From the NCBI GenBank assembly GCA_964647565.1, contig CAZYIM010000029.1, positions 17,148-39,009 of the forward strand: a stretch of DNA of 21,862 nt, in the 5' to 3' direction. The position numbers and the translations under genes were made by a program. Of this stretch, positions 1,257-21,040 are shown one piece after another. The DNA is from an uncultured Methanosarcinales archaeon. GTDB lineage: Archaea > Nanobdellota > Nanobdellia > Woesearchaeales > CAZYIM01. Each line of letters starts with the position of its first letter. The first letter of the stretch is position 1. The notes below the pieces were generated by a model. It was not told where the DNA came from. It saw nothing but the letters and a program-made list of their open reading frames with translations, and searched no databases.

Positions 1257-2315
1257 TTATTTATCTTCAGACTTTTTCTTGTTAGATTTGGATTTAGTAG
1301 TGGTAGTCTTCTTTTTGGCAGTCTTTTTCGCCGCAGGTTTCTTCTTCTTTTCTTCTTTAGCTTCAGGCACTTCTTTAGCTTCTTCCTTCTTCTCTTCCTT
1401 GCTTTCTTCAGCGTCTTTACCTTCTTCCTCGACTTCAGCTTCTTCCTTCTTCTCTTCGCCTTCTTCAGCTTCCACTTTCTCTTCAGCAGCTTCTTCCTTC
1501 TCTTCGCCTTCTTCAGCTTCCACTTTCTCTTCAGCAGCGTCTTCCTTTGCCTCAGGAGCTTCTTCTTTCACATCTTCAGGTTCATTTTTGGTCTCTGGTT
1601 TTTTCTGCTCTGTTTCTGTTGTACCCTCTTCAACTGGCTGAGATTCTTCATCTACTTCTTCAGAAGCCTTCTCTGTCTCTTGTTTTGCAGCCCTTTCTGC
1701 TCTAGTCTTTGATCTTGACAATTCTTTTTTAACATTAAGATCTTTTGTTTCAAGCTTAAATGACCTAATTTCGCAAGTCCTGATTGGGAAAACCTTTGAA
1801 ACGGAGTCCCTTAAGAATCGTTGCAGTTTATAGTTAATCAAGTCTGTAAGAATAGTATCGAATGTATTTTGTGCAAGCACATCATGGATAATTTTCCTTG
1901 CAGCAAGCCGAATCTTAGTAAGAATGTTCTTTTTAGCCTTATAGCTTGTGATTATCAGAGGTTTTACTCGAACAACCTTCTTATCTGATGTAACAGATAG
2001 GAATGAATCATCGATCTTAGCCCTGTCTCTCCTGACAAGCCTTTTTACTGAGCTGGCTGACATGAAGTAACCTAGGACCTCAGTATGGCCTTTGCCATCC
2101 ACAACCTTGTTAACCTTGAAGATAAGATTAATATGCTGTCTTTTAGGATCTCCTGTAATTGTCATCAAATTCAGGGTCATTGGTTTAGACTCAAGCAAGC
2201 TTGGATCTATCAAAAGGCTGTCTCCAAGTAACTTTTCACCTAATAGTTTAGGAGCTACAATAGGAAACCATCGCTTCTTCTTGACCTTTTTTCCTGACTT
2301 CTGTTTTGTTGCCAT
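1257..2315 (-). CDS. rps3ae: 30S ribosomal protein S3Ae (eS1) with long Glu/Lys/Ala-rich C-terminal extension
   Basis: KKRWFPIVAPK, LMTITGDPKRQHINLIFKV, VKRLVRR..KIDD and KVFPIRTCEIR motifs typical of eS1 in the first ~190 aa, followed by ~160 aa of low-complexity tail. Confidence 0.93.
   Translation of the reverse strand: MATKQKSGKKVKKKRWFPIVAPKLLGEKLLGDSLLIDPSLLESKPMTLNLMTITGDPKRQHINLIFKVNKVVDGKGHTEVLGYFMSASSVKRLVRRDRAKIDDSFLSVTSDKKVVRVKPLIITSYKAKKNILTKIRLAARKIIHDVLAQNTFDTILTDLINYKLQRFLRDSVSKVFPIRTCEIRSFKLETKDLNVKKELSRSKTRAERAAKQETEKASEEVDEESQPVEEGTTETEQKKPETKNEPEDVKEEAPEAKEDAAEEKVEAEEGEEKEEAAEEKVEAEEGEEKKEEAEVEEEGKDAEESKEEKKEEAKEVPEAKEEKKKKPAAKKTAKKKTTTTKSKSNKKKSEDK
1448..1538. repeat. 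48-bp-period intragenic tandem duplication in the rps3ae tail (AAEEKVEAEEGEEK twice)
   Basis: ttctcttcgccttcttcagcttccactttctcttcagcagc ends at both 1490 and 1538. Confidence 0.9.
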
Positions 2316-2517: not shown

Positions 2518-4470
<1,953 letters not shown>

Positions 4471-4636: not shown

Positions 4637-5332
4637 CTATTTATCCAACAGTCGCTCGGCCATTTTTATGTCCGCAGGATAGTTTATGTTAATAAAATAA
4701 CCGATGTCTGCAGCCATTATAAGATGCTTGGACGCGAGTTCATCCATTGCATACGCAAAGCTCATATCCTGTTTATTTTTCAGAGGCTCATCAAGTTGAT
4801 CCAAGAAATCATGCTTCATAAATGCATTATAAACTAAAACATAATCCTTCAAATCTCTGCTTGCACTTATTATCCTATACTCTCCTGAAATAGAGTCAAG
4901 TTTAACTCTTTTCAGAGTCTCAGGCTCGCCAGTTTCAATAGTAAAGGTTGCATCAGCAGCCATGAGATTGTTGAAGGAAACGATTTTTTTGATCTGCCAA
5001 GGAAATAAAATATTATCTCCACAAAAACAAAAAGCATCAGAACCATTAAGATACTTTCTAGCAGAAAGAATAACACTCTCAGGCCCTTTACCTTCAGCCT
5101 CAAAATAACTGATACGCACTCCTAAGTCAGCTCCATCTCCAAAATAATCTTTTATCTGCTGACCAAGATAACCTACATTTATCAGGTAATCATCAATTCC
5201 TGCTTCTAGAGCATAACTAATAGCATGCTCAAGGATTGGTTTGTTATTTACCTCTACCAAAGGCTTAGGTTTTGTATCTGTCAACGCGCCCATTCTTCGG
5301 CCTCTCCCTCCTGCAAGCACTATTGTTTTCAT
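4637..5332 (-). CDS. Sugar-phosphate nucleotidyltransferase (NTP_transferase / NDP-sugar pyrophosphorylase family)
   Basis: LAGGRGRRM...KPKPL signature, GYLGQQIKDYFGDG, CGDNI and NINYPAD; no left-handed beta-helix domain. Confidence 0.92.
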   Translation of the reverse strand: MKTIVLAGGRGRRMGALTDTKPKPLVEVNNKPILEHAISYALEAGIDDYLINVGYLGQQIKDYFGDGADLGVRISYFEAEGKGPESVILSARKYLNGSDAFCFCGDNILFPWQIKKIVSFNNLMAADATFTIETGEPETLKRVKLDSISGEYRIISASRDLKDYVLVYNAFMKHDFLDQLDEPLKNKQDMSFAYAMDELASKHLIMAADIGYFININYPADIKMAERLLDK

Positions 5333-6102
5333 TTTTCAAGCACCTTGAAATATTTATCAACAGTTGATTTAATATTGCCTACAATCATGTTTGGAGTGCC
5401 TGAACTATCTATGAACTTCAGACTACTCACCAAATCACCCAATGCCTTAAAATTGCGCTTAACTCTACTAATATAATCTGGCTTTTCATTTGGATAAATG
5501 ATGCCTCCTTTTTCTGGAGATCTCTTCATAACCCGATCATAGGCTATCAGAGTTTCGCATTCCAGAACAAAACTAATATTAGACACAGGATCAAAATCAG
5601 AGATCTTGATTAGCTCTGTCAGTTCAGTTTCATTCGATGCATGATACGCCAACTGTGAAAGATAACTCCTGTTCTGGATCACTAGATTTTGTTCATCACT
5701 CAAGTAAGGCAAAAGAAAGCTATAAACAAAATGTTTTCTGCCTGCTGTCAACAAGAGAATGGAACAATCATTCCCAGGATGCATATCATGATTTTGCCAA
5801 AGATATTTAGCCACCTGTCTAAAAGGATCCTGTTTTTTCTGGACAAACATCACTATATTGTAATCCTGATAAAATGCATCAGCCCCCAGTTTTTGCTCAA
5901 GCAATTCGATCTGCGTATCTTTGCCTGCTCCGCTATGTCCGTCCACAGTTATGAGTTTGCCCAATTTAGGATAATCCTTTTCAAGAGGTCTTTCCATTTC
6001 AAACATGCCTAAAAGAAAAGAATAAAGCCGTTCAACTGATTCAGAGGAATTGTTTAGAGACTGTGTAAAAGAAATAACTTCTTCAAACTTATTTTCTTTC
6101 AT
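5329..6102 (-). CDS. Thymidylate-kinase-like nucleoside monophosphate kinase (divergent)
   Basis: P-loop ITVDGHSGAGKDTQ; VIQNRSYLSQLAY resembles the TMK DRxxxSxxAY motif; PNEKPDYISRVKRNF lid-like segment; ~45-aa N-terminal extension; ATGA overlaps at both ends. Confidence 0.85.
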   Translation of the reverse strand: MKENKFEEVISFTQSLNNSSESVERLYSFLLGMFEMERPLEKDYPKLGKLITVDGHSGAGKDTQIELLEQKLGADAFYQDYNIVMFVQKKQDPFRQVAKYLWQNHDMHPGNDCSILLLTAGRKHFVYSFLLPYLSDEQNLVIQNRSYLSQLAYHASNETELTELIKISDFDPVSNISFVLECETLIAYDRVMKRSPEKGGIIYPNEKPDYISRVKRNFKALGDLVSSLKFIDSSGTPNMIVGNIKSTVDKYFKVLEK

Positions 6103-6815
6103 CGGTCTCTCCTAAATCTATCAAGAACAGAATTGATAATTGTCGTTGTGGGGGTAGCTCTTTGGTTCTCTAATTTAGGAAACAGCTTCAGCGTACCACC
6201 AAAGGATTTGACTGCATCAATCTCGCGTTTGACAATATCTTGATCAGATATATCTCTCTTTTCTTTAAAGAAATAAGCAGGTCTAATTTTATTTATTGCG
6301 TCTAAACAATCAGGTTTTTCCAAAGGAATAACAAAATCTATTGCTTTTATCTTCGATAACATGTTCAGCCTTTCATTTATATGCAATATAGGTCTGGCTG
6401 CACCTTTTTTTTCAGAAATATCTTTGTCTAAAAGGACTAAAACACCTAGCTTAAAATTAGGAGTGCTCCCCATTTCCTGCTTGACCAAATGCATATTACG
6501 GGCATGCCCAATGTGACAAAGATCATAACATCCTGATACCAAACCAAGAACATCACCAGTCCTAACACTATGTTCTGCCATTTCAGACACACTTCTAATT
6601 TTTTCAGATATGCACATATCAGGTTTTTCAGGCTTCATCCCATTCTTGCCAAGTATCCTATTCAGAAGAACATCTGAAGACCTGTTCTGCATATCCAGAT
6701 TAAGTTCAGTCGTCAGAGCATCACAGCCTTCAAAATAACCCAGATACTCAATCCATTCTTCTGGAGTATAAAAATCAAGATGCTTCAGATTCCATAATAT
6801 TTCTTGGACATTCAT
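6099..6815 (-). CDS. HxGH cytidylyltransferase-like protein (RfaE/HldE domain II or TagD-like) with ~85-aa N-terminal extension
   Basis: SGCYDLCHIGH, KKGAARPILHINERLNML, IDFVIP and TTTIINSV motifs. ATG at 6815 overlaps the upstream TGA (ATGA) and is preferred over GTG 6824. Confidence 0.88.
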   Translation of the reverse strand: MNVQEILWNLKHLDFYTPEEWIEYLGYFEGCDALTTELNLDMQNRSSDVLLNRILGKNGMKPEKPDMCISEKIRSVSEMAEHSVRTGDVLGLVSGCYDLCHIGHARNMHLVKQEMGSTPNFKLGVLVLLDKDISEKKGAARPILHINERLNMLSKIKAIDFVIPLEKPDCLDAINKIRPAYFFKEKRDISDQDIVKREIDAVKSFGGTLKLFPKLENQRATPTTTIINSVLDRFRRDR

Positions 6816-8074
6816 TTTGTACACCCTGAAACATTAACATCCTTGACACAATAGGGATCATGACCATCGAGATCTCCATCAAAGACATAAGCCATGACAG
6901 GGCAGCCACCGTTGCATTTTACTATGTGATACTTACAGCCCTTACAGCAGGCTCTGGTGACATTTCTTGCTTGGTTAAGAATATCAGAATTATACCATAT
7001 CTCTAATAAGTCCTTACCCCGAACATCTTCACCTATCCATCTTTCTAAATTGACAAAGTATCCACAAGGCACCAACCGAGCAAAAGCATCTAAGGTCATA
7101 CCACTTGATCCCAAAGGACACTTAGAGTTATCAAAAGGAAATGGAGAATACTTTCCTAAAACTCTGCCTTTGTTTTCAGCTGCCCCTTCACAAAAGATAT
7201 CGAAGTTTATCCTAGCCTTGTACTTGGGCAACCCTGCCCGTGCTCTAAGTTCCTGCACCTTTTTAGCAGCAACAACTATCTCCTCAGGTGTCAGCATATC
7301 TTCTTTTCTAGCTCTGCCAGTTGGCCTCAATAATCCCAAGCTTATCAAAGCATTATACTTTTGGGCCAGATTAAACATTTCCTCAATAAAAATCTTGTTA
7401 GTTTTCATCAGAACCATGTTTATGGTCAGTTGAACAGGAGTATCAGATTTTTTATTATATTCCGAAATGCCAGTCAAGGTTCGAATAATTTTTTCATAGG
7501 TTCCCTGTCCCCTGATCTGATCATTGAGTTTCTCAGGACCATCCAGGCTCACCCTTATATCATTTATACCTGTTGCCAGGATCCTATCAAGCATTTCCTT
7601 TCCAAATAGTCCATTGGTATTCAAACCTATCCTGACACCCTGCTTATGGATGAACTCAACAATATTAAAAAAATCTGTCCTTGTTGTGGGTTCACCACCT
7701 GTAAGCCGGATATAATCGCCACCCGATTCTGAAAACTGTGTCAATATATCCTTAATTTCATTTAAAGTGGCCTCTTTTTTTGGCCACTTCTTTGCATTCG
7801 AGTCCATAAAACATTCAACACAGGACCCATTGCATTTTTTTGTTATCTCAAAAAACATGGCCCGCGGACTTGAAGTGGCATTTTGGGGAAGGCTATATCC
7901 TTTCTCAGTCAAATCAACAAATTTAACCCAGTCTCCTGTTGAACGAGCAGATAATAAATCTAACTTTTTTTGCACATATTGTCCAGGACTTAAAAAGATA
8001 GACTCACCTGTCGATGTATCAACAAATAAACCACCAAATGACTCTTTTCTTAATATCAGTTTCTTTCTTTGCAT
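6812..8074 (-). CDS. Radical SAM/SPASM domain enzyme
   Basis: CNGSCVEC, LTGGEPT, NTNG, VSLDG; C-terminal CPLG...LVPC...CKGCKYHIVKCNGGCP...DPYC full SPASM cysteine pattern. Confidence 0.95.
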   Translation of the reverse strand: MQRKKLILRKESFGGLFVDTSTGESIFLSPGQYVQKKLDLLSARSTGDWVKFVDLTEKGYSLPQNATSSPRAMFFEITKKCNGSCVECFMDSNAKKWPKKEATLNEIKDILTQFSESGGDYIRLTGGEPTTRTDFFNIVEFIHKQGVRIGLNTNGLFGKEMLDRILATGINDIRVSLDGPEKLNDQIRGQGTYEKIIRTLTGISEYNKKSDTPVQLTINMVLMKTNKIFIEEMFNLAQKYNALISLGLLRPTGRARKEDMLTPEEIVVAAKKVQELRARAGLPKYKARINFDIFCEGAAENKGRVLGKYSPFPFDNSKCPLGSSGMTLDAFARLVPCGYFVNLERWIGEDVRGKDLLEIWYNSDILNQARNVTRACCKGCKYHIVKCNGGCPVMAYVFDGDLDGHDPYCVKDVNVSGCTK

Positions 8075-8082
8075 TTTAATTA

Positions 8083-9219
8083 TCAGACAAAACTATTGTG
8101 ATATTTCGGGCTTTTAAAATATTCAATAATCTCATTGTAACGGCTCATAGGATGCGTGCACCACTTAATGCATTCAATCTTTTTTATCCTTTTAAGGACA
8201 TCTGTTCTTTTTTTGCTTTCCCAAATCTGTTTGAATGTCTGACCGTTTGCATAATCGAGAGTACCGATATTCCACTCACTAACAAATCGTAGGTTGCAAC
8301 ATGGATAAACCTTCTTGTCCGCAGTAATTACCGTAAATAAAGGCGTGGCAAGGCATCTTCCTGTGATGTGCTCAATCCCATTAGCGCCTTGCCGCATATA
8401 TCCCCCTCTCCTGGGCGATTCCTCTCTTGAAGATATTTTTTTCGCGTCAAAATCAGATATCCAATAATCAATCAGAATCCGCATCTCTCCAGTATATGCC
8501 TGCTTTTGTCTTTCGAATTCAGTGATAAGCTTCTTTTTCTGCTCAACAGTCATCGAAGACTTCCTACCTGCCTCCTCAAAGAAAGGCGGCCTAAAAAATA
8601 CATAGTCTACGCCAGATATATCCCCCAGTGCAATCGCTTCTTTGACAAGATGTATCATCGCATAATCCATTGCAAAAGAGAGACCGACAATAGGATGTCT
8701 CTGCTTGTTTTTCTTTCTGAGTATCATAATTTGAGAGACGCCATCCATTATTTTAGAAAAGTCGTTGCTCCTGTGCAATTTGTTGTGGCTCTCTGATGTA
8801 GGACCATCAATGCTGACCCTGACATAGCTCGCAGCAGATACTATGCTTTTATGGAGTTTTGCCAGCTGGCTACCATTAGTGACAATGCCGATTTCAAAGC
8901 CAAGCTCTTTTGCTTCATTAAGAATATCTGCAAACTGTTGGTGAAGGGTAGGCTCACCTCCACCCTTGAACACAACACCTTTCACACCCAAAGATTTGAG
9001 TTCTATGAGTAATTTTGAGACAAATGATCTTTCTAAAGAATTATTGCTGTGAGCAGGATCAACACACCACCAGCAATTGTGGTTACAAAAATCTACCAGG
9101 TCCAATTCTACTGTGACTGGAAAGACGTCTTTATCATGAGCCAGGTTTCTGATTTTATCTATATGGTTTAGATACTTATATGGACTAAATTCTATATCCT
9201 CAAATGAATCCCCTAACAT
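8083..9219 (-). CDS. Radical SAM enzyme with Twitch-like auxiliary-cluster domain
   Basis: CNHNCWWC, KGGGEPT, VTNG, VRVSIDG; C-terminal CLATP...VYPCC...IGTL...IW...CIKWC. Confidence 0.93.
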   Translation of the reverse strand: MLGDSFEDIEFSPYKYLNHIDKIRNLAHDKDVFPVTVELDLVDFCNHNCWWCVDPAHSNNSLERSFVSKLLIELKSLGVKGVVFKGGGEPTLHQQFADILNEAKELGFEIGIVTNGSQLAKLHKSIVSAASYVRVSIDGPTSESHNKLHRSNDFSKIMDGVSQIMILRKKNKQRHPIVGLSFAMDYAMIHLVKEAIALGDISGVDYVFFRPPFFEEAGRKSSMTVEQKKKLITEFERQKQAYTGEMRILIDYWISDFDAKKISSREESPRRGGYMRQGANGIEHITGRCLATPLFTVITADKKVYPCCNLRFVSEWNIGTLDYANGQTFKQIWESKKRTDVLKRIKKIECIKWCTHPMSRYNEIIEYFKSPKYHNSFV

Positions 9220-9230
9220 CTTACCCCCAT

Positions 9231-9701
9231 TTATTTCAGGACACCCTTTAGGACATCCAGATGTGTTTTATTGACTTTCTGATGCTCCAGATCATCCAGA
9301 TCCGCCCAAAATACTTCACTAACCTCTCGCGTATCAATGATTTTAATTTCTTTATCTCCAACAATCTCAACTAAAAAAAATGTCGGCTCTGAATGAAAAT
9401 ATCTGTCAATATCATCAGCATAAAAAAATTCCTTCTTGGTCTTGATAGGAGTTTTATTGACTAAACTTATATTGAGACCTGTCTCTTCAAAGAACTCTCT
9501 TTTCAAACCCTCACCCAGGGACTCGCCAGGCTTTACTGCACCACCAGGTAGACTAATCAATCCACCTTTCCAATTTGGTTTGACCAATAAAACCTTTTTT
9601 CCATCTCGGACTAGGCCATAGACAGACAACCTCTTATGAACTTCTCTATCTTTTGGTTTGATGCAACTCTTACCTTGTCTATCCCTAAATTGTTGAGCCA
9701 T
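9231..9701 (-). CDS. NUDIX hydrolase
   Basis: Nudix box PGGAVKPGESLGEGLKREFFEETGL; ATG at 9701 is preceded by a GGTGAT SD and is preferred over TTG 9713. Confidence 0.95.
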   Translation of the reverse strand: MAQQFRDRQGKSCIKPKDREVHKRLSVYGLVRDGKKVLLVKPNWKGGLISLPGGAVKPGESLGEGLKREFFEETGLNISLVNKTPIKTKKEFFYADDIDRYFHSEPTFFLVEIVGDKEIKIIDTREVSEVFWADLDDLEHQKVNKTHLDVLKGVLK

Positions 9702-9715
9702 CTTATCACCCAATT

Positions 9716-11026
9716 TCAGCCAAGTATCTTCTTATAACAATACCATTCGCTAGTATTAAGTATTTGACCTTTAAGTTGATTTAAAACATCTGCGTTTGCA
9801 TTAATCTTGGCATAGTCTATATTCTGAATCGGACATGAACCCACGCATTGATGATTGGTAAAGTATTTACAAGCTATACAATCATCTGACTTAAGGGACA
9901 AGTCCCGAAATATGGTCCATGCGGATTCCTGCTTCCATATATCTAAAAAATGTGGAATATTGTTAATAGGGAATGTTCCTGCTAAAAAAGGTTTCCTTAT
10001 GGCAGGCGCCGCTTCTAAGTCTGTTGCAGGGCAATATGAACAACCATAAACAACAAACTCTTTGTTTTCTGCATCGTAATCAAGATTAGTGCCCTCTCTA
10101 CCCGCTGCACAGGAAGATTTTTTATTGAATACAGGATCTGAGTAAATTTGATCTTTGAAATCAGTCTCCATCGTGGTAGTAACCCTTATGCCAAGCTTTT
10201 TCTTGGCAATTACCAGTTGCTCTATGACATTTTTGAACTCTTCGGCAGTCACCATATCTTTCTTCATCTTAGGATCTCTTACCTGGGGTCTTAGAGGTAT
10301 AACAGTTATGCTTTCTGCATCCACATCCTTGGTTATCTTTCCAAGCTCCATCATCTGATCCTTGTTCTCCTTAGTAAGCACTGTTGTAAGTCTCAAGCGT
10401 ATCGACGGATTCTTGGATTTTAAGTATTTCAGATTACGAATAATAGTATCAAAGGTGCCTGACCTATATTTATTGTGAGTTTCCCTATTACCATCAATAG
10501 AGCATATTAACCATAAGTTTTTTTCTTCACATAATGCATCCATAATCTCATTACTGATCACACCGTTGGTAGCAACAGACACATAAACTCCTTCTTGCTG
10601 AAACTTGTGCACAATGTCCAGGAAATCAGGATGCGTTGTCGGCTCACCACCAGTCAGTCTGACTTCAATCAGGCCGCTTTGTCCCATGAACTCTGCAATC
10701 TCCATTATAGCCTTAGTAGGCACATGAGACCCTCCTTTTTTGGCCTTGATAAAGCAAGTCGGGCATTCCAGATTACAGTTTCTTGTAATCTGAAAATAAA
10801 TACGCCGTGGAAACCTTGTGTGAGTTTTTGGGGTTGAGCCTGCGAATATGATTACATCTTTGCCCTGAACTTTTTGGATATAAGCGTCTTTCATCACCTG
10901 TTCTGAGAAGTCATCAGGCAGATAGCTCTCGAAATCTTCTTGGGATATTACCAATCGCTTTCCACTCTCTGTGTCAAACTTGACATATTCATCAAATTCA
11001 GGATGTTCTTTGTATATTTTTAGCAT
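9716..11026 (-). CDS. Radical SAM/SPASM domain enzyme
   Basis: CNLECPTC, LTGGEPT, ATNG, SIDG; C-terminal CAAGR...GCSYC...CIACKYFTNHQCVGSCP...WYC. Confidence 0.95.
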   Translation of the reverse strand: MLKIYKEHPEFDEYVKFDTESGKRLVISQEDFESYLPDDFSEQVMKDAYIQKVQGKDVIIFAGSTPKTHTRFPRRIYFQITRNCNLECPTCFIKAKKGGSHVPTKAIMEIAEFMGQSGLIEVRLTGGEPTTHPDFLDIVHKFQQEGVYVSVATNGVISNEIMDALCEEKNLWLICSIDGNRETHNKYRSGTFDTIIRNLKYLKSKNPSIRLRLTTVLTKENKDQMMELGKITKDVDAESITVIPLRPQVRDPKMKKDMVTAEEFKNVIEQLVIAKKKLGIRVTTTMETDFKDQIYSDPVFNKKSSCAAGREGTNLDYDAENKEFVVYGCSYCPATDLEAAPAIRKPFLAGTFPINNIPHFLDIWKQESAWTIFRDLSLKSDDCIACKYFTNHQCVGSCPIQNIDYAKINANADVLNQLKGQILNTSEWYCYKKILG

Positions 11027-11029
11027 TTT

Positions 11030-11713
11030 TTAACCTTTTACAACAGGCACAAATATCTCTGGCTCAAATTTAGTCAACTTATCACCCTCAAATGTCAGTT
11101 TGCTAACCGAACCGTTCCCTAAGTATAAATTATACGCTTCTTTACCTCCAATGCCTGCAAGTAGTGCAATAGACCACGCGATAGCACATCTGTGAGTAAA
11201 CAATCCAATCGACTCATAACCTTGGTTTAATATATCTGATTTAATATATCCTATCACTCGAGATGCTACATCATCAGGAGACTCCCCATTTGGAGGGCGT
11301 TCGTACCATAATTTTTCAACATCTTCTGATGATGTTATATATAATCCAGTCGGAATGATATCTGATCTTTTTCTCAACTCCCAATCGCCCATGGATTGCT
11401 CAAGCAGTTTGTCTGTCACACCCATATCCCTCATTTTAGCATAAAAATCTTCTTTATCAAAAAGTTCTTCTGTACTATACCTCGCAGTTTGTTGTGCTCT
11501 TACAGCAGATGAGGATACTATTTTATCTAAAAAAATTCTTTCTTGTTTAAAGTACAGACCTGCCAGTTTAGACTGAGTTATACCCTTGGGAGTCAGCTCA
11601 CTCCAGACATTTCTACCCCAGATAAGTTTTGATTCAAGCGGCAGTGATTCTTGTATCTCATTTGTTTCACATTCACCATGCCTAATCAAATATATCTCAC
11701 ACCGCTTCAGCAT
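11030..11713 (-). CDS. Histidine phosphatase (phosphoglycerate mutase superfamily)
   Basis: IYLIRHGE, LTPKGITQ, SSAVRAQQTA, LLEQSMGDWE, PPNGES and FTHR (second His). Confidence 0.95.
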   Translation of the reverse strand: MLKRCEIYLIRHGECETNEIQESLPLESKLIWGRNVWSELTPKGITQSKLAGLYFKQERIFLDKIVSSSAVRAQQTARYSTEELFDKEDFYAKMRDMGVTDKLLEQSMGDWELRKRSDIIPTGLYITSSEDVEKLWYERPPNGESPDDVASRVIGYIKSDILNQGYESIGLFTHRCAIAWSIALLAGIGGKEAYNLYLGNGSVSKLTFEGDKLTKFEPEIFVPVVKG

Positions 11714-12684
11714 TTTAACTGCCTCACCTGATACTCGCTTGTCTGTCTTTTTGTGTCCAACGGCTGGCAGTACTGGCAGTTAAGACAGGGAAGCTGCTTG
11801 GTGAAGGTTATTAACGAATTGTCACCTTCAAATTGTGCCTTCCGAATGGCAGTAAGCTTTTTGCCATGCCAGATATCTTTGATTGATTCTTTAGTGGTGT
11901 CTCCGATAATCCAAGATCTATCCATCGAAGGACCTTTAAACAACTCATTAAAGCATATAACAACAGATCCATCACAATCTATATTGAATCTGCTCCAGTG
12001 GACCTGACAGGGCACCTGTGCGGGTTTTGTTTTTTTCTCACCTTCCCTACTTACAAGACCGTTATAGCTATGATAGCTCCTGATAAATGCATCTGCAAGC
12101 CAGCCACTCTTTTTCCAGTAGCTGACAAAAGCTGTATCGTAATCCTGATCATCGCTTTGAACCCTGCTGACAATTAATCTGGTCTTTAGATGGTTTTTGG
12201 CAATAAAATTATGCAGATACTCAATGTTGCTCTTGACTAATTCAAATGCATTCGTGCCTTTTGTAGAAGAGTAGTTATCTGGATCAATGCTGTTTACTGA
12301 AATTTCTACTATGGAACAATTCCTGACCAATGCTTCTAGAAGATGCCTATTCTTAGTCACTGCGTTGGTAAATATCCAGGAGATTACGCCTTTTTTCTTC
12401 ACATAATCCAGTCCGTCTCCAAGATGCTTCCACATCAGAGGCTCTCCAACTGAATGTATTCGCAGGGTTGAGTGCTTAAATTCTGAGACCTGGTCCACAA
12501 TATTTTTAAAAACCTCAAATGACATATCTTCATCGCCAAATTTGGTTTTCCTCTGTTCTATAGGAGTCTTTCCCAAAGGACAATGCACACAATTGGCTGT
12601 ACAGGCTCCCTTGAAGACGCACACATGTACTATGTTTGGAAACGTATATTGTTCTTGGGATGTAAAACCTTTAGGAAGTTTCAT
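11707..12684 (-). CDS. Radical SAM enzyme with Twitch-like domain
   Basis: CTANCVHC, HSVGEPL, FTNA; C-terminal PCQVHWSRFNIDCDGSVVIC...IGD...SIKDIW...PCLNC. Confidence 0.93.
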   Translation of the reverse strand: MKLPKGFTSQEQYTFPNIVHVCVFKGACTANCVHCPLGKTPIEQRKTKFGDEDMSFEVFKNIVDQVSEFKHSTLRIHSVGEPLMWKHLGDGLDYVKKKGVISWIFTNAVTKNRHLLEALVRNCSIVEISVNSIDPDNYSSTKGTNAFELVKSNIEYLHNFIAKNHLKTRLIVSRVQSDDQDYDTAFVSYWKKSGWLADAFIRSYHSYNGLVSREGEKKTKPAQVPCQVHWSRFNIDCDGSVVICFNELFKGPSMDRSWIIGDTTKESIKDIWHGKKLTAIRKAQFEGDNSLITFTKQLPCLNCQYCQPLDTKRQTSEYQVRQLKC

Positions 12685-12685
12685 T

Positions 12686-14275
12686 CTACACTACACCTCG
12701 TTTCAAATTGACTGACAGTACATTCTCTGTTTCTGACTGCATAAGCTTATCTATCAGGTTTTCAATCTTTTCTGTATTTTTACCAAGGATCTTGTAAATG
12801 GCCAGAAATGTAATTAAACCAAACAAAGGATGTGGAACAACACCCCTCCAGTCATATTTAGAAAGTGTCTCTTGCAAGAGCAGGTCTCTTAGTTTTAATG
12901 ACTGTTCAGCTAATTCACAGACCTCTTTTGAATCTGGGAGAATATTATCAGGCAAGGTAAACTGGGTATTATTACACTCGAAAGTGCGATAAGTAAAGAG
13001 TAATGAATCTGATTTGAGTATGCTTGATCCGGGATATACCTCCAAATAGCTATAGACTGTAAGTCTGGCACCTTTCTCAACCAGTTCAACAGATGCATCA
13101 ATCGTCTCAATTATATCGTTCACTGTTGATGTCGGATAAAAGAGTATAATGTTCATAAGAGGCGTTATTCCTGATTGAATTGTATTCTCAATCGTGTTAA
13201 AAATGACTTTTTTAACATCATTCCCAAGCATATTTTTATTCATATGGTGCAAAATGTTCTTTGAAAAAGATTCTACCCCATAAATAATGAATTTAAACCC
13301 AACATCATGCATCTTTTCTAGCAACTCACGGTCAAGCACACCTATTCTGGATAAACAGAAGAAAGTTAAGTCTTTAAGGCTTTCATCTGATTTCAAACAA
13401 TCACAGAACTCAGAGACCTTTTGCTTGTTCAAGAAAAAATCATCATCGCAAAAATAGAATGCCTTGACAGCAGGATGCTCAGCTCTTGCATTTTTTACCA
13501 AACGTATCATTTTGGCAGGATTAAGGAAAAGAACCTTTTGTTTACCGCAAATGGCGTTGTTAAGGAGGTGTGTTGAAGAGCAAAAACTACATCCCCTCGG
13601 GCAGTGACTAGTACTTACTAATCTGATAGTGTGCAGCATGTTTTCATTCTTCATTATCCTAAGATGCTCAGCAGTATATTGTTGCTCCATATAAGACCAA
13701 TACTCTTCAAAGGGTATTTGTTTAAAATCTAATGAGAGTGAAATTTCCTCAAACTGGGATTTTATGTAGGCTTGTGCTGGACCCGTATCAAATATCTCAC
13801 CTTTAGAATCTCTTCTTATGAAGAGCCCATTTATGTCGCCAAAGCGTTTTACTAAAGAACCCTTCCTTGAGAACTGTTGAATCATCTTTTCCATAGGAAA
13901 CTCGCCAAGACCCTTTATTATTATCTGTAGAGGCGTATTTTTAAGCAGAAAATCAGAGCTAAAGACAGCACCCTGCCCTCCTGCAACCAAAAGAGACTTC
14001 GGAACAAGTTTTTTTAATTTGTACATGAGATCTATATCATTGTGCCAGGTTTGATAGAGTAGGCTAAATCCAATAATATCTGGTTGTTTTTCTTTAATCA
14101 GATCAAATAACTTTTGTGTTCCTGAGAGATCAGGATCATATACCTCAACAGAAGCAGATGTTTTTTTTCTAAGATAAGAAGCAATTCTATGGATACCCAT
14201 AGGTGGACTAAAATACTGTCCCACTCTGAGCCCTTTATTCTTAAAAGGAGATATCAAAACTATCTTTAGTTTCAC
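12686..14275 (-). CDS. Cobalamin (B12)-binding-domain radical SAM enzyme
   Basis: N-terminal PPMGIHRIASYLR, PDIIGFS, VAGGQGA (B12-binding domain); CPRGCSFC, FCDDDF, YGVES (radical SAM core). GTG at 14275 follows a G-rich SD-like run and a TTTATAAA box, and is preferred over TTG 14338. Confidence 0.93.
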   Translation of the reverse strand: MKLKIVLISPFKNKGLRVGQYFSPPMGIHRIASYLRKKTSASVEVYDPDLSGTQKLFDLIKEKQPDIIGFSLLYQTWHNDIDLMYKLKKLVPKSLLVAGGQGAVFSSDFLLKNTPLQIIIKGLGEFPMEKMIQQFSRKGSLVKRFGDINGLFIRRDSKGEIFDTGPAQAYIKSQFEEISLSLDFKQIPFEEYWSYMEQQYTAEHLRIMKNENMLHTIRLVSTSHCPRGCSFCSSTHLLNNAICGKQKVLFLNPAKMIRLVKNARAEHPAVKAFYFCDDDFFLNKQKVSEFCDCLKSDESLKDLTFFCLSRIGVLDRELLEKMHDVGFKFIIYGVESFSKNILHHMNKNMLGNDVKKVIFNTIENTIQSGITPLMNIILFYPTSTVNDIIETIDASVELVEKGARLTVYSYLEVYPGSSILKSDSLLFTYRTFECNNTQFTLPDNILPDSKEVCELAEQSLKLRDLLLQETLSKYDWRGVVPHPLFGLITFLAIYKILGKNTEKIENLIDKLMQSETENVLSVNLKRGVV

Positions 14276-14311
14276 TGTTTCAACCCCCAAAACATTGGTA
14301 AAATTCAGGAG

Positions 14312-14319
14312 TTTATAAA
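14312..14319 (-). promoter_or_regulatory. Putative TATA box of the radical SAM operon
   Basis: TTTATAAA about 37 bp upstream of GTG 14275, in an AT-rich divergent region. Confidence 0.55.
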
Positions 14320-14414
14320 TCTTAATAATTATATCCAATATATTAAATATTGAATATATATAGTCGAATGAAAAAAAGCAAAAATTAAAATAAAAAAGAG
14401 CATTTCTGTTCTAT

Positions 14415-16465: not shown

Positions 16466-17389
16466 CTATTGCTCGAATAGTTTTGCAGCACCAGGAAATT
16501 TATCTTCTACAGTCAGGGTAAAATCGTGTCTTCCCGGATCATACATTTTACCCTCGGACAGAACAGTATGCCAGAATGTCGGATCCCTACAGTTATCGAT
16601 GGGTTCTTGGGGACTACTTGAAAAATAGAAATCAGTTTCATCTTTCTTCCCAAACATACGGGTTGACAATACATGTACATCCAAGAGAAGCGATAACCGC
16701 TCTCTGTCAGAATCAGGATAATTAAAACCATAAGGAGATTCAAGAGGCGGAATTCCTAGGACACCAACTCTTTTTATGATATTGTGCATTGCAGAATCCT
16801 GCATAAGTTTATGCTCTTTTTCTCTATCCTGGGTATAATAATCATCTGCAGGATCGCCCCTGTATCCCAAAGACCAAAAAATCGCATAAGCATCTAATCT
16901 TCTGTTCCCAGTTCTAACACCAGAGTCAGACTCCATCACCCAATCAGCCCTCTCACCATAAGGATCCTTGCTGAATTCTTCTAATTTGTGGCCGCGATGC
17001 AAAATAAGCATGTCTATATCATTGGGATTGGTATCTCCCCTTGCAAGTGAGCCAAATATTACGACGCCTTCAACTCCAACATCAAGATATGACTTCTTGT
17101 GGATGATCTCAGCAATATCCTTGGCCACCTCATAGTACTGACCGTCGAAATAATTCATCCATGGATCCATGAGGTTCAACATGCCCTGCAGCTGCGAGGA
17201 TTTCTCTTGCAGACTGTAGAAACCCTCTTTTTCCTGGATCAGATTCTGCTCCTGAAGCATCTTTAAAGGCATATCCAATCTGCCCTGTTTTATATGTAGA
17301 TACTTAGCCAAATCATCTAATGAAATAGGACCCTCATTTAGTTTCACCAACACCCTAAGGTTTGTCTGTACCATGTTAATCTTGAACAT
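16466..17389 (-). CDS. Winged-HTH plus DNA polymerase beta-superfamily nucleotidyltransferase domain protein
   Basis: N-terminal ISLDDLAKYLHI...LKMLQEQNLIQEKEGFYSL (wHTH-like); VVIFGSLARGDTNPNDIDMLIL is the hGS...DxD signature; LLDVH is a candidate third Asp. Confidence 0.8.
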   Translation of the reverse strand: MFKINMVQTNLRVLVKLNEGPISLDDLAKYLHIKQGRLDMPLKMLQEQNLIQEKEGFYSLQEKSSQLQGMLNLMDPWMNYFDGQYYEVAKDIAEIIHKKSYLDVGVEGVVIFGSLARGDTNPNDIDMLILHRGHKLEEFSKDPYGERADWVMESDSGVRTGNRRLDAYAIFWSLGYRGDPADDYYTQDREKEHKLMQDSAMHNIIKRVGVLGIPPLESPYGFNYPDSDRERLSLLLDVHVLSTRMFGKKDETDFYFSSSPQEPIDNCRDPTFWHTVLSEGKMYDPGRHDFTLTVEDKFPGAAKLFEQ

Positions 17390-19952: not shown

Positions 19953-20420
19953 ATGAAAAGAAAAGACCTTTTGTTTTTAACGCATTTAAGGAAAAATGCC
20001 AGGGAAACCCTGACCAATATAAGCAAGAAGACCGACATCCCAATATCAACCCTCTACGACAAACTAAAGATACACGAAAAAGGCCTGATAAAAAAACATA
20101 CTACCTTAATTGATTTCTCAAAGCTCGGCTACAACTGCAGGGCGACCATCACATTGAAGGTTGACAAGGAAAACCGGAATGCAATGAGAGAGTCATTATT
20201 GAAATCTGAACACATCAATTCTGTATTTAAGATCAACAACGGTTATGACTTTATGGTTGAATGTATATTCAAGAACCTAAAAGAGCTGGAAGATTTCCTT
20301 GATAACCTTGAAGATAAATACAACATAATAGAAAAGCAGACCTATTATATAATAGAGGAAATAAAACGCGAGGGCTTTATGACAGATCCTGAAATTATTA
20401 ATATCCTTCCAACATTTTAG
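19953..20420 (+). CDS. Lrp/AsnC family transcriptional regulator
   Basis: LRKNARETLTNISKKTDIPISTLYDKLK HTH, IDFSKLGY linker, C-terminal RAM domain (GYDFMVE); GGAGG SD. Confidence 0.92.
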   Translation: MKRKDLLFLTHLRKNARETLTNISKKTDIPISTLYDKLKIHEKGLIKKHTTLIDFSKLGYNCRATITLKVDKENRNAMRESLLKSEHINSVFKINNGYDFMVECIFKNLKELEDFLDNLEDKYNIIEKQTYYIIEEIKREGFMTDPEIINILPTF

Positions 20421-20587: not shown

Positions 20588-21040
20588 ATGGTGACAAGAA
20601 AAGAAATGTTGATACTAAGCCAGTTGAGAAGGAATGCAAGACAACCCTTAATCAAGATCTCGAACAAGATAGGTGTGCCAATAAGCACTATCTATGACAG
20701 GATCAAGTCTTGCGAAGGGAATGTCATAAAGAAATATGCAACCATTGTGGACTTCCCAAAGATAGGATTCAACATAAGGAAAAAGATACTTGTCAAGGTA
20801 AAGAATCCTAATGAATTTCAGCGCTTTGCTTCTGAAAATCCCCATGTGAATTCTATATATAAGCTAAGTTCTGAATTCGACTTCCTTCTAGACTGCATCT
20901 TCATGTACATGAATGATCACGATAATTTCAACACCCAGATGGATCAGGCAGGAGTGTTGAAGAGAATGGAATTTTTTGTAACAGAGGCTCCAAAACAAGA
21001 GAGCTTCATGGTAGATCCAGAATTTGTAAACAAACTATAG
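20588..21040 (+). CDS. Lrp/AsnC family transcriptional regulator
   Basis: LRRNARQPLIKISNKIGVPISTIYDRIK HTH, VDFPKIGF linker, EFDFLLDC; GAGGTGA SD. Confidence 0.92.
   Translation: MVTRKEMLILSQLRRNARQPLIKISNKIGVPISTIYDRIKSCEGNVIKKYATIVDFPKIGFNIRKKILVKVKNPNEFQRFASENPHVNSIYKLSSEFDFLLDCIFMYMNDHDNFNTQMDQAGVLKRMEFFVTEAPKQESFMVDPEFVNKL

Follow-up and report, generated by a model that had tools for sequence, protein, structure and literature searches.

A recurrent cassette of radical SAM enzymes and nucleotidyltransferases in a Woesearchaeales archaeon: a candidate nucleotide-anchored biosynthetic pathway

Unusual chemistry has come from radical S-adenosylmethionine (SAM) enzymes that act on nucleotide-linked small molecules, with fosfomycin, blasticidin, tunicamycin and the products of viperins as examples. 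In fosfomycin biosynthesis, Fom1 cytidylylates its substrate, the B12-dependent radical SAM enzyme Fom3 methylates the substrate linked to cytidine monophosphate (CMP), and hydrolysis by FomD releases CMP (PMC8158854). The tunicamycin cluster includes the radical SAM enzyme TunB, the histidine phosphatase TunG, the pyrophosphatases TunN and TunH, and the methyltransferase TunM (PMC6965331). Activation of ADP- and GDP-heptose proceeds through GmhA, a kinase (HldE or HddA), the phosphatase GmhB and a nucleotidyltransferase (HldE-II/HldC or HddC). Here, we analyze a stretch of 21,862 nucleotides (nt; hereafter, the window) from an uncultured archaeon of the order Woesearchaeales (contig CAZYIM010000029.1 of assembly GCA_964647565.1), in which ten genes, termed g1 to g10 (Table 1), pack four conserved SPASM or twitch radical SAM enzymes and a B12-binding radical SAM enzyme around a dedicated nucleotidyltransferase, an arrangement with no described counterpart. 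A first, sequence-only reading of the window recognized no known pathway in this gene set, and the same emerges here: none of the ten genes reaches a curated NCBIfam family, every match falling far below its cut-off, and no description of the set was found in the literature outside subscription journals.

One precedent is the fosfomycin pathway of Streptomyces, whose transient nucleotide handle follows the logic that we favor for the cassette. The likeness is one of enzyme kind, with low family scores: both systems have a nucleotidyltransferase (here, g8 or g10) and a B12 radical SAM enzyme (g1, or the corresponding enzyme of related cassettes), and the Nudix hydrolase g5 would take the releasing role. 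However, Pfam detects no phosphoenolpyruvate (PEP) mutase, decarboxylase or epoxidase among the ten genes, and neither PEP mutase nor phosphonopyruvate decarboxylase domains occur in them or in the neighbors of six related loci. Moreover, the hydrolase in the window is of the Nudix rather than the FomD type, there are four additional SPASM/twitch enzymes, and on the PhpK-family model g1 reaches only 46 bits where 600 are required. The heptose pathway shares with the cassette a triad of kinase, phosphatase and RfaE-domain-II-like nucleotidyltransferase, but neither the window operon nor the related cassettes contain GmhA or a PfkB/GHMP sugar kinase, the cassette kinase being thymidylate-kinase-like, and the nucleotidyltransferases remain below the respective cut-offs (61.9 versus 181.5 bits for g8 on rfaE_dom_II, its best NCBIfam match and the source of its likeness to heptose-1-phosphate adenylyltransferase; 54 versus 300 bits for g10 on HddC). 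Elsewhere in the genome, a GmhA-like SIS_2 gene (contig C16, approximately 45831-46696, locus L065) lies directly beside a g10 paralog (37% identical), in what looks like a separate heptose-type activation module. Tunicamycin biosynthesis resembles the cassette by gene class: its radical SAM enzyme is accompanied by a histidine phosphatase, a methyltransferase and a small pyrophosphatase, and together these act on nucleotide or nucleoside diphosphate (NDP)-sugar precursors (PMC6965331, PMC6105854). It differs in that the window lacks a short-chain dehydrogenase/reductase-type dehydratase or epimerase, glycosyltransferase, deacetylase, acyl carrier protein and ATP-binding-cassette exporter, and has four or five radical SAM enzymes rather than one. 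An identity with MoaA (GTP 3',8-cyclase) was also considered and rejected, as g7 and g4 score only 90.0 and 59.6 bits on the archaeal model, for which the cut-off is 325.

These genes recur together in other lineages, and their grouping in the window is therefore more than chance. An alignment scan with g4 across 185,579 species genomes (9 loci) and a metagenome collection (9 loci, 7 of them orthologous), with duplicates merged at 97% or higher DNA identity in g4, yielded 11 further distinct lineages (ten with the whole of g4 and one with part of it), which belong to Nanoarchaeota/Woesearchaeota or lie on truly bacterial contigs. All seven lineages with at least 5 kb of sequence upstream of g4 (L027, L029, L030, L031/38, L032, L036 and L039) possess g6, the pair g7-g8, g2 and g4, in this order, and in each of the ten assessable lineages g2 is either directly upstream of g4 or separated from it by a phosphatase gene (in L032, by one unknown open reading frame [ORF] in addition). 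Wherever flanks suffice, the invariant core thus consists of g2, g4, g6, g7 and g8. This synteny bears out the earlier view that the genes form a set, but not that they form a fixed unit of ten: g9 and g10, the Nudix hydrolase, a methyltransferase and the phosphatase are all modular, and g1 is not the usual B12 enzyme.

Genes g9 and g10 are both present in five lineages and both absent in two, and never occur singly. In the five lineages with the full form, a B12 radical SAM gene, a Nudix gene (three of five; 44–47% identical to g5) and either a class I methyltransferase (two of five) or an unknown gene of 422 amino acids (aa; one of five) precede, in this order, the series g6-g7-g8-g9-g10-g2-g4. 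The two cassettes without g9 and g10 carry a phosphatase between g2 and g4, which is a histidine phosphatase in L032 and a Cof-type HAD phosphatase in L027. The window combines both sets, having g9 and g10 as well as a phosphatase, and differs in block order, with g2-g3-g4 ahead of g5-g10. Because the histidine phosphatase found in the window, L032 and L042 (where the g3 orthologs, at 33–35% identity, occupy the equivalent position) is swapped at this one position for a Cof-type HAD phosphatase in L027, a required dephosphorylation step is indicated. L027 also contains an Anp1-like glycosyltransferase and an additional radical SAM gene, such that the reported lack of a glycosyltransferase holds for the ten window genes, in which Pfam finds no glycosyltransferase, epimerase, aminotransferase, peptidase or transporter domain, but not for this variant of the cassette. 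Four extra genes encoding proteins of 283–428 aa are scattered among the variants (L036 1752-3020, L027 4646-5932, and L032 1765-2769 and 6502-7353). Pfam assigned no family to three of these and only a sub-threshold DUF4049 to L032 1765-2769, and a comparison of the extra genes of L036 and L027 revealed no similarity. In a metagenome-derived cassette that is 99.8% identical in g4 to that of genome G326, the carrier of L027, the g7 ortholog (L037 2659-3896) aligns as two overlapping pieces, which suggests a frameshift in that assembly.

Within the window's own order, the cassette is rare. We searched for g8 in 401 genomes of this order (a tally that includes four unpublished genomes), and although generic cytidylyltransferase matches were present in 118 of the 401, the sole full-length ortholog among the 400 further genomes was that of G326 (locus L027, the same as L028; 42% identity, E 1.8e-56), on a contig that also bears orthologs of g6, g7, g2 and g4. 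The next-best match (3.2e-16) covered the C-terminal domain alone. Other loci of the order, chosen by their similarity to g7, proved to be radical SAM arrays in which nothing matched g3, g8, g9 or g10 at E≤1e-3 and there was one weak Nudix match. A word-indexed search with g8 alone returned no matches, which marks the limit of sensitivity of that method, since orthologs of about 40% identity exist.

Predicted fusion proteins provide what we regard as the strongest evidence that g8 may work with the radical enzymes. A HMMER search with the g8 alignment against 1.84 billion representative proteins recovered 43 proteins at E≤1e-30; the matches also cover the family-specific N-terminal domain of g8 (approximately 90 residues) in 36 of the 38 best (at least 139.9 bits), and the lower ones cover the generic catalytic domain only. 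Among these proteins are four fusions, all of them gene predictions from metagenomes known at the protein level: P0179 (922 aa) joins g7, g8 and g9 in this order (39, 39 and 37% identity), P0178 (601 aa) joins a g7-like radical SAM enzyme to g8, and both P0186 and P0194 join g8 to g2 (47 and 43% identity to g2). The radical SAM motif CxxxCxxC and the nucleotidyltransferase motif HxGH are kept in all four. Three fusion architectures that mirror neighbors in the cassette would be hard to explain as chance artefacts, and they argue that the nucleotidyltransferase is functionally tied to two radical enzymes and the kinase.

At the level of individual genes, the domains that had been named in the sequence-only reading were recovered by Pfam for all ten, and the catalytic motifs read in the translations are intact (CxxxCxxC in all five radical SAM genes; HxGH in g8, within SGCYDLCHIGH; the P-loop DGHSGAGKD in g9; GGRGRRMG in g10; RHG in g3; and a complete Nudix box in g5). 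The distinction between SPASM and twitch enzymes likewise agrees with the C-terminal cysteines conserved in ortholog alignments, of which there are seven in g4, seven or more in g7, and five each in g2 and g6. Most conserved is g4, at 63–72% identity over ten lineages, a sign of strong constraint across families and both domains of life; orthologs of g6 are 61–64% identical, those of g7, with g8 always next downstream, 51–60%, and those of g2, present in every locus with an upstream flank, 48–58%.

Table 1. Genes of the window operon and the spacer upstream of it, with positions in the window.
Feature	Description	Position	Strand	Support
g1	B12-binding radical SAM, 529 aa from GTG 14275 (ORF extends to TTG 14338)	12686..14275	-	Pfam B12-binding 1.5e-9, Radical_SAM 1.3e-14
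g2	Radical SAM, twitch-like or partial SPASM, 325 aa	11707..12684	-	Pfam Radical_SAM 1.1e-11, SPASM 3.7e-11
g3	Histidine phosphatase (branch 1), 227 aa, between g2 and g4	11030..11713	-	Pfam His_Phos_1 5.3e-24
g4	Radical SAM/SPASM, 436 aa, conserved N-terminal domain of ~70 residues	9716..11026	-	Pfam Radical_SAM 5.9e-22
g5	Nudix hydrolase, 156 aa from ATG 9701 (ORF extends to TTG 9713)	9231..9701	-	Pfam NUDIX 1.2e-17
g6	Radical SAM, twitch-like or partial SPASM, 378 aa	8083..9219	-	Pfam Radical_SAM 5.3e-14, SPASM 3.2e-6
g7	Radical SAM/SPASM, 420 aa, N-terminal domain of ~68 residues	6812..8074	-	Pfam Radical_SAM 5e-22
g8	Cytidylyltransferase-like (HxGH) nucleotidyltransferase, 238 aa from ATG 6815	6099..6815	-	Pfam CTP_transf_like 9.7e-9
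g9	Thymidylate-kinase-like P-loop kinase, 257 aa, N-terminal extension of ~45 residues	5329..6102	-	Pfam Thymidylate_kin 4.8e-9
g10	Sugar-1-phosphate-type nucleotidyltransferase, 231 aa	4637..5332	-	Pfam NTP_transferase 6.5e-17
Spacer	Divergent spacer upstream of g1, 139 nt	14276..14414		AT-rich throughout, several TATA-like runs (sequence only)

Comparisons with solved structures and curated families place each enzyme in a broad class. In profile searches of solved structures, the sole match of g2 was the twitch region of BtrN (1.4e-8); g4 matched BlsE best (3.4e-12, core only), followed by anSME, SuiB, SkfB and viperins; g6 matched viperin-like enzymes (1e-7) and BlsE; and g7 matched MoaA (4.4e-14), CteB and BlsE, and also PqqE. 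The strongest NCBIfam matches of g7 include AhbD (131.6 bits, cut-off 500) and MftC (131.1 bits, cut-off 265). For g8, the profile search returned ethanolamine-phosphate cytidylyltransferase (1.3e-15), then 5x9q, a "putative cytidylyltransferase," and the choline-phosphate and glycerol-3-phosphate cytidylyltransferases. The kinase g9 matched thymidylate kinases (best 1e-11) by profile and nothing in a single-sequence search, and at 49.3 bits it does not reach the curated score of DTMP_kinase (TIGR00041, cut-off 83.25). It is a second copy, there being a separate housekeeping thymidylate kinase on contig C13 beside ThyX and a dCMP deaminase. Solved matches of g10 are UDP-glucose pyrophosphorylase (4e-20), MurU and glucose-1-phosphate cytidylyltransferase, with NCBIfam scores of 96.5 bits for AglF (cut-off 400) and 89.5 bits for MurU (cut-off 250). 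In the ESM Atlas, g4 and g8 fall only into generic radical SAM/SPASM and cytidylyltransferase-like clusters, and no Pfam family was matched by the N-terminal pieces of g4, g7, g8 and g9 at E≤10.

Taken with the synteny, these classes lead us to favor, with a probability of about 0.5, a pathway in which the cassette would attach a phosphate-bearing sugar or alcohol to a nucleotide, remodel it by radical chemistry, and then use or release the product; its substrate class, order of steps and product fate are what we infer from the genes. As a member of the cytidylyltransferase class, which makes NDP-X from X-phosphate and a nucleoside triphosphate, g8 would first join a phosphate-bearing alcohol or sugar to a nucleoside monophosphate, and g10, where present, would perform the equivalent joining for a sugar-1-phosphate. 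The four SPASM/twitch enzymes g7, g2, g6 and g4 would then remodel the nucleotide-linked compound. The handle might be kept, in which case the product would be an activated donor, or it might be removed by the Nudix hydrolase (NDP-X to nucleoside monophosphate and X-phosphate) and a phosphatase; g9 would either re-phosphorylate the released nucleoside monophosphate or make the phospho-substrate. We prefer this scheme because the cassette has two enzymes of the NDP-X class (of which g8 is invariant and sometimes fused), interchangeable phosphatases, an optional Nudix hydrolase and an extra kinase. The best solved matches of its radical enzymes include the small-molecule or nucleotide enzymes BlsE, MoaA, viperin-like proteins and BtrN, which we also count in its favor. 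Of the earlier interpretation, the nucleotide-linked logic has thus gained from the predicted fusions of the nucleotidyltransferase with two radical SAM enzymes and the kinase.

Several observations weigh against this pathway. The matches of the radical SAM enzymes to characterized proteins are weak (33–55 bits) and mainly reflect the shared core, and the solved matches also include the peptide maturases anSME, SuiB, SkfB, CteB and PqqE. The fusion proteins come from metagenome gene prediction. AlphaFold2 models are too poor to use (mean pLDDT of 56.6 for g7 from an alignment of 8 sequences and of 58.9 for g4 from 10, with SPASM halves below 50), but at their low confidence they display N-terminal strand-strand-strand-helix domains in g4 and g7, and these conserved, strand-rich domains might serve to hold a partner protein or peptide. 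The nucleotide-binding motifs of g9, which we take to be thymidylate-kinase-like, would also fit a modified nucleotide as product, and no transferase or exporter that would reveal a product's destination is found in the window.

Should the nucleotide-anchored scheme be correct, its fuller form would be a new kind of pathway in which a nucleotidyltransferase is physically associated with the radical enzymes (in some organisms by fusion), four successive radical steps yield a new class of metabolite (e.g., a carbocyclic, branched or chain-extended sugar), and the whole is exchanged as a mobile unit among ultra-small symbiotic archaea, ultra-small bacteria and free-living anaerobes, an extension that we put forward only tentatively. 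The gene set is small enough to be tested (7 to 10 genes), and the predicted fusions hint at which of its enzymes cooperate.

That the product is instead an altered nucleoside or nucleotide, for instance an antimetabolite or viperin-style chain terminator serving defense or competition, is in our judgment unlikely. Under such a scheme, the kinase would charge a nucleoside monophosphate, whose base or ribose the radical SAM enzymes would alter; trimming to the nucleoside would fall to the Nudix hydrolase and the phosphatase. As in the prokaryotic viperin (pVip) systems, radical SAM genes here stand beside a gene resembling a nucleoside-monophosphate kinase, and models of pVip are the only ones that PADLOC returns (27–73 bits for g2, g4, g6 and g7). 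On the NCBIfam viperin model NF038283, whose cut-off is 180 bits, g2, g4 and g6 reach only 30.5, 67.6 and 56.0, and the model is outside the 25 best families of g7. Viperin-like enzymes are the best solved matches of g6, but the cassette enzymes carry SPASM/twitch domains, and to our knowledge four such enzymes far exceed any known viperin-type system. The thymidylate-kinase-like g9, additional to the housekeeping enzyme, and the pairing of Nudix hydrolase with histidine phosphatase, which recalls TunN and TunG of the tunicamycin cluster, both suit a nucleotide product; however, the genes that cassettes can do without are those for the kinase and the Nudix hydrolase, the former being absent from two of the seven flanked lineages, and such a product requires no NDP-X-forming enzymes, whereas g8 is invariant and fused and g10 is of the sugar-1-phosphate type. 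The cassette is patchy and at times neighbors insertion sequence (IS) elements or recombinases, which would also be in keeping with such a product, as would a second cluster in the same genome (contig C45), where a Nudix hydrolase and a kinase accompany a viperin-like radical SAM enzyme (121 bits).

Less probable still is a new dinucleotide-type cofactor or prosthetic group, for which g8, much like an NMN or phosphopantetheine adenylyltransferase, would join AMP or CMP to a moiety made by radical SAM chemistry, and a further phosphate would come from g9 in the manner of dephospho-CoA kinase. The family of g8 (PF01467) also holds NMNAT, PPAT and archaeal FAD synthetase; the adjacency of g8 and g9 and their fusion in the g7-g8-g9 protein resemble pairs of adenylyltransferase and kinase; NCBIfam matches of g5 include, weakly, bifunctional NMNAT/Nudix enzymes; and the strongest NCBIfam matches of g7 and g4 are radical SAM enzymes that build cofactors (AhbD, MftC, a tungsten-cofactor maturase, PqqE and MoaA), although none reaches its cut-off. 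For a cofactor, however, one would look for a consistent group of carrier genomes and for a client enzyme alongside, whereas the distribution is sparse (g8 in one of 400 same-order genomes; an ortholog of g4, at E≤1e-60, in none of 400 further Planctomycetota genomes), the flanks differ in every lineage, and the neighbors of the cassette include no conserved candidate for a client enzyme. Maturation of a protein or of a peptide that is made on ribosomes and modified afterwards (RiPP), with SPASM enzymes crosslinking or modifying a small precursor that the nucleotidyltransferases and kinase decorate, would accord with the typical role of SPASM/twitch enzymes, with the peptide maturases among the solved matches and with the N-terminal domains of the low-confidence g4 and g7 models, which could be recognition elements, but it is very improbable given that at E≤10 the N-terminal pieces matched neither PqqD nor any other family of recognition elements, that Pfam finds no peptidase or exporter in the ten genes, that inspection of the spacers, in the window and at nine related loci, showed no short ORF in common (without formal comparison), and that the fused and invariant partners are nucleotide rather than peptide-handling enzymes.

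The B12 enzyme of the window stands apart from those of its relatives. Across the other cassettes, these enzymes are mutually orthologous, being 76–86% identical among archaeal lineages and 51–53% identical to the copy on a bacterial contig, whereas g1 is only 19–24% identical to them and nothing in the window's genome comes closer to the relatives' enzyme than 34%, which argues that g1 is either a non-orthologous replacement or an added neighbor. Its sole tie to the operon is the 1-nt spacing to g2. The best NCBIfam match of g1 is HpnJ (57.8 bits versus a cut-off of 577.6), and a single-sequence search of solved structures returned AprD4 alone, at 0.0057.

The cassette is not a specialty of DPANN archaea, since g2 and g4 orthologs also lie on bacterial contigs. 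Two cassettes adjoin the archaeal EF-1alpha gene (L030 and L039), and carrier bin G404 encodes the ribosomal protein S3Ae; other contigs continue into a bacterial DnaG primase, a sigma-70 factor and a serine recombinase (L034), into QueA, L31, Rpe, FolD and Dus (L035), or into UvrC (L033), and a bin labeled Patescibacteria, with a complete cassette, lacks S3Ae. The g4 family numbers 254 homologs at E≤1e-10, and among the best 120 of them identity never drops below 53%. By the database name field, the source of all organism names for g4 and g9 homologs, these come from Nanoarchaeota, Woesearchaeota, Patescibacteria, Chloroflexi, Anaerolineales, Thermoguttaceae, Deltaproteobacteria and the cultured Desulfatibacillum aliphaticivorans, and those named as Chloroflexi, Thermoguttaceae and Desulfatibacillum are 53–61% identical. 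The last of these, a sulfate reducer, could open the way to genetics and metabolomics. The g9 family is small (38 homologs); for 14 of the 38, the length of the longest contig equals that of a g4 match, which suggests that the two are on the same contigs. Flanks vary from lineage to lineage, with transposases of IS1595 and IS110 in L029, an integrase in L039 and a recombinase in L034. In our best reading, the cassette is horizontally mobile and exchanged between archaea and bacteria. No match to g4 was present in collections of mobile elements (72,556 plasmids, 50,697 phage records and IMG/VR). In one bin labeled Brocadiaceae, there is no g6 ortholog (best match, 30% identity), so that its 6-kb contig may be misbinned or cut.

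The layout of the window operon was as previously described. ORF calls with ortholog-supported starts confirm ten co-oriented genes, head to tail on the minus strand from 4637 to 14275, and reading of the junctions confirms gaps of at most 14 nt: beyond the 1-nt gap already mentioned, g2 and g3 overlap by 7 nt, and gaps of 3, 14, 11 and 8 nt separate g3/g4, g4/g5 (counted with the g5 start at ATG 9701), g5/g6 and g6/g7, followed by 4-nt ATGA overlaps at g7/g8 (6812-6815), g8/g9 (6099-6102) and g9/g10 (5329-5332). The operon promoter is probably contained in the upstream spacer, where the base composition does not pin down a single TATA box, and a Shine-Dalgarno-like run, GGGGGT, lies 6–11 nt before the g1 start codon. 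A search of sequencing runs produced eight DNA entries from two marine or seawater studies, with no RNA run listed.

The host organism is far from biosynthetically minimal, which weakens the contrast that had been drawn between this operon and a lineage of minimal biosynthesis. Its assembly comprises 2.68 Mb in 86 contigs and is 87% complete, and as a query g7 finds 38 matches in it, versus 0–11 in 40 genomes of the same order. Three radical SAM islands on contigs C12, C13 and C17 (L050–L057) total approximately 124 kb, in which 52 of 94 ORFs of at least 100 aa carry a Radical_SAM domain, 13 of them with B12-binding. The islands also hold seven PMT_2-type (GT-C) glycosyltransferases, two GT2 enzymes, five GDSL esterases, a polysaccharide deacetylase and asparagine synthase homologs, a content from which it seems that this organism applies radical chemistry extensively to its envelope glycans and which would make a glycan precursor a plausible fate for the cassette product. 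An LPG_synthase_TM protein and a GcpE gene are located in the islands as well, and in two cases a radical SAM gene of the islands seems to be separated from its SPASM domain (L050 7442-8616 and 8660-9843). The second nucleotide-type radical SAM cluster of the genome (C45, L063 5532-10404) encodes, in order, a Nudix hydrolase, a GTP-cyclohydrolase-II-like protein, a 284-aa radical SAM enzyme (best family prokaryotic viperin, below the cut-off of 180 bits), a kinase resembling thymidylate or deoxynucleoside kinases, a PRAI-like protein and an unknown 413-aa protein.

Further features of the window lie outside the operon. The gyrB gene (2518-4452, minus strand) consists of two abutting in-frame ORFs, the first of 546 aa (HATPase, DNA_gyraseB and Toprim domains) ending in a TAA stop at 2812-2814 and the second of 97 aa (DNA_gyraseB_C) starting with an ATG at 2811, right after the stop; the break could represent a split gene, a stop that is read through, or a sequencing error. 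Ribosomal protein S3Ae (1257-2315, minus strand; 352 aa) has its Pfam domain at residues 4–190, the rest being a low-complexity tail rich in Glu and Lys. A 307-aa protein (16466-17389, minus strand) combines an N-terminal ArsR-type helix-turn-helix with a minimal nucleotidyltransferase (NTP_transf_2/Pol-beta), and two Lrp/AsnC-type regulators are encoded at 19953-20420 and 20588-21040.

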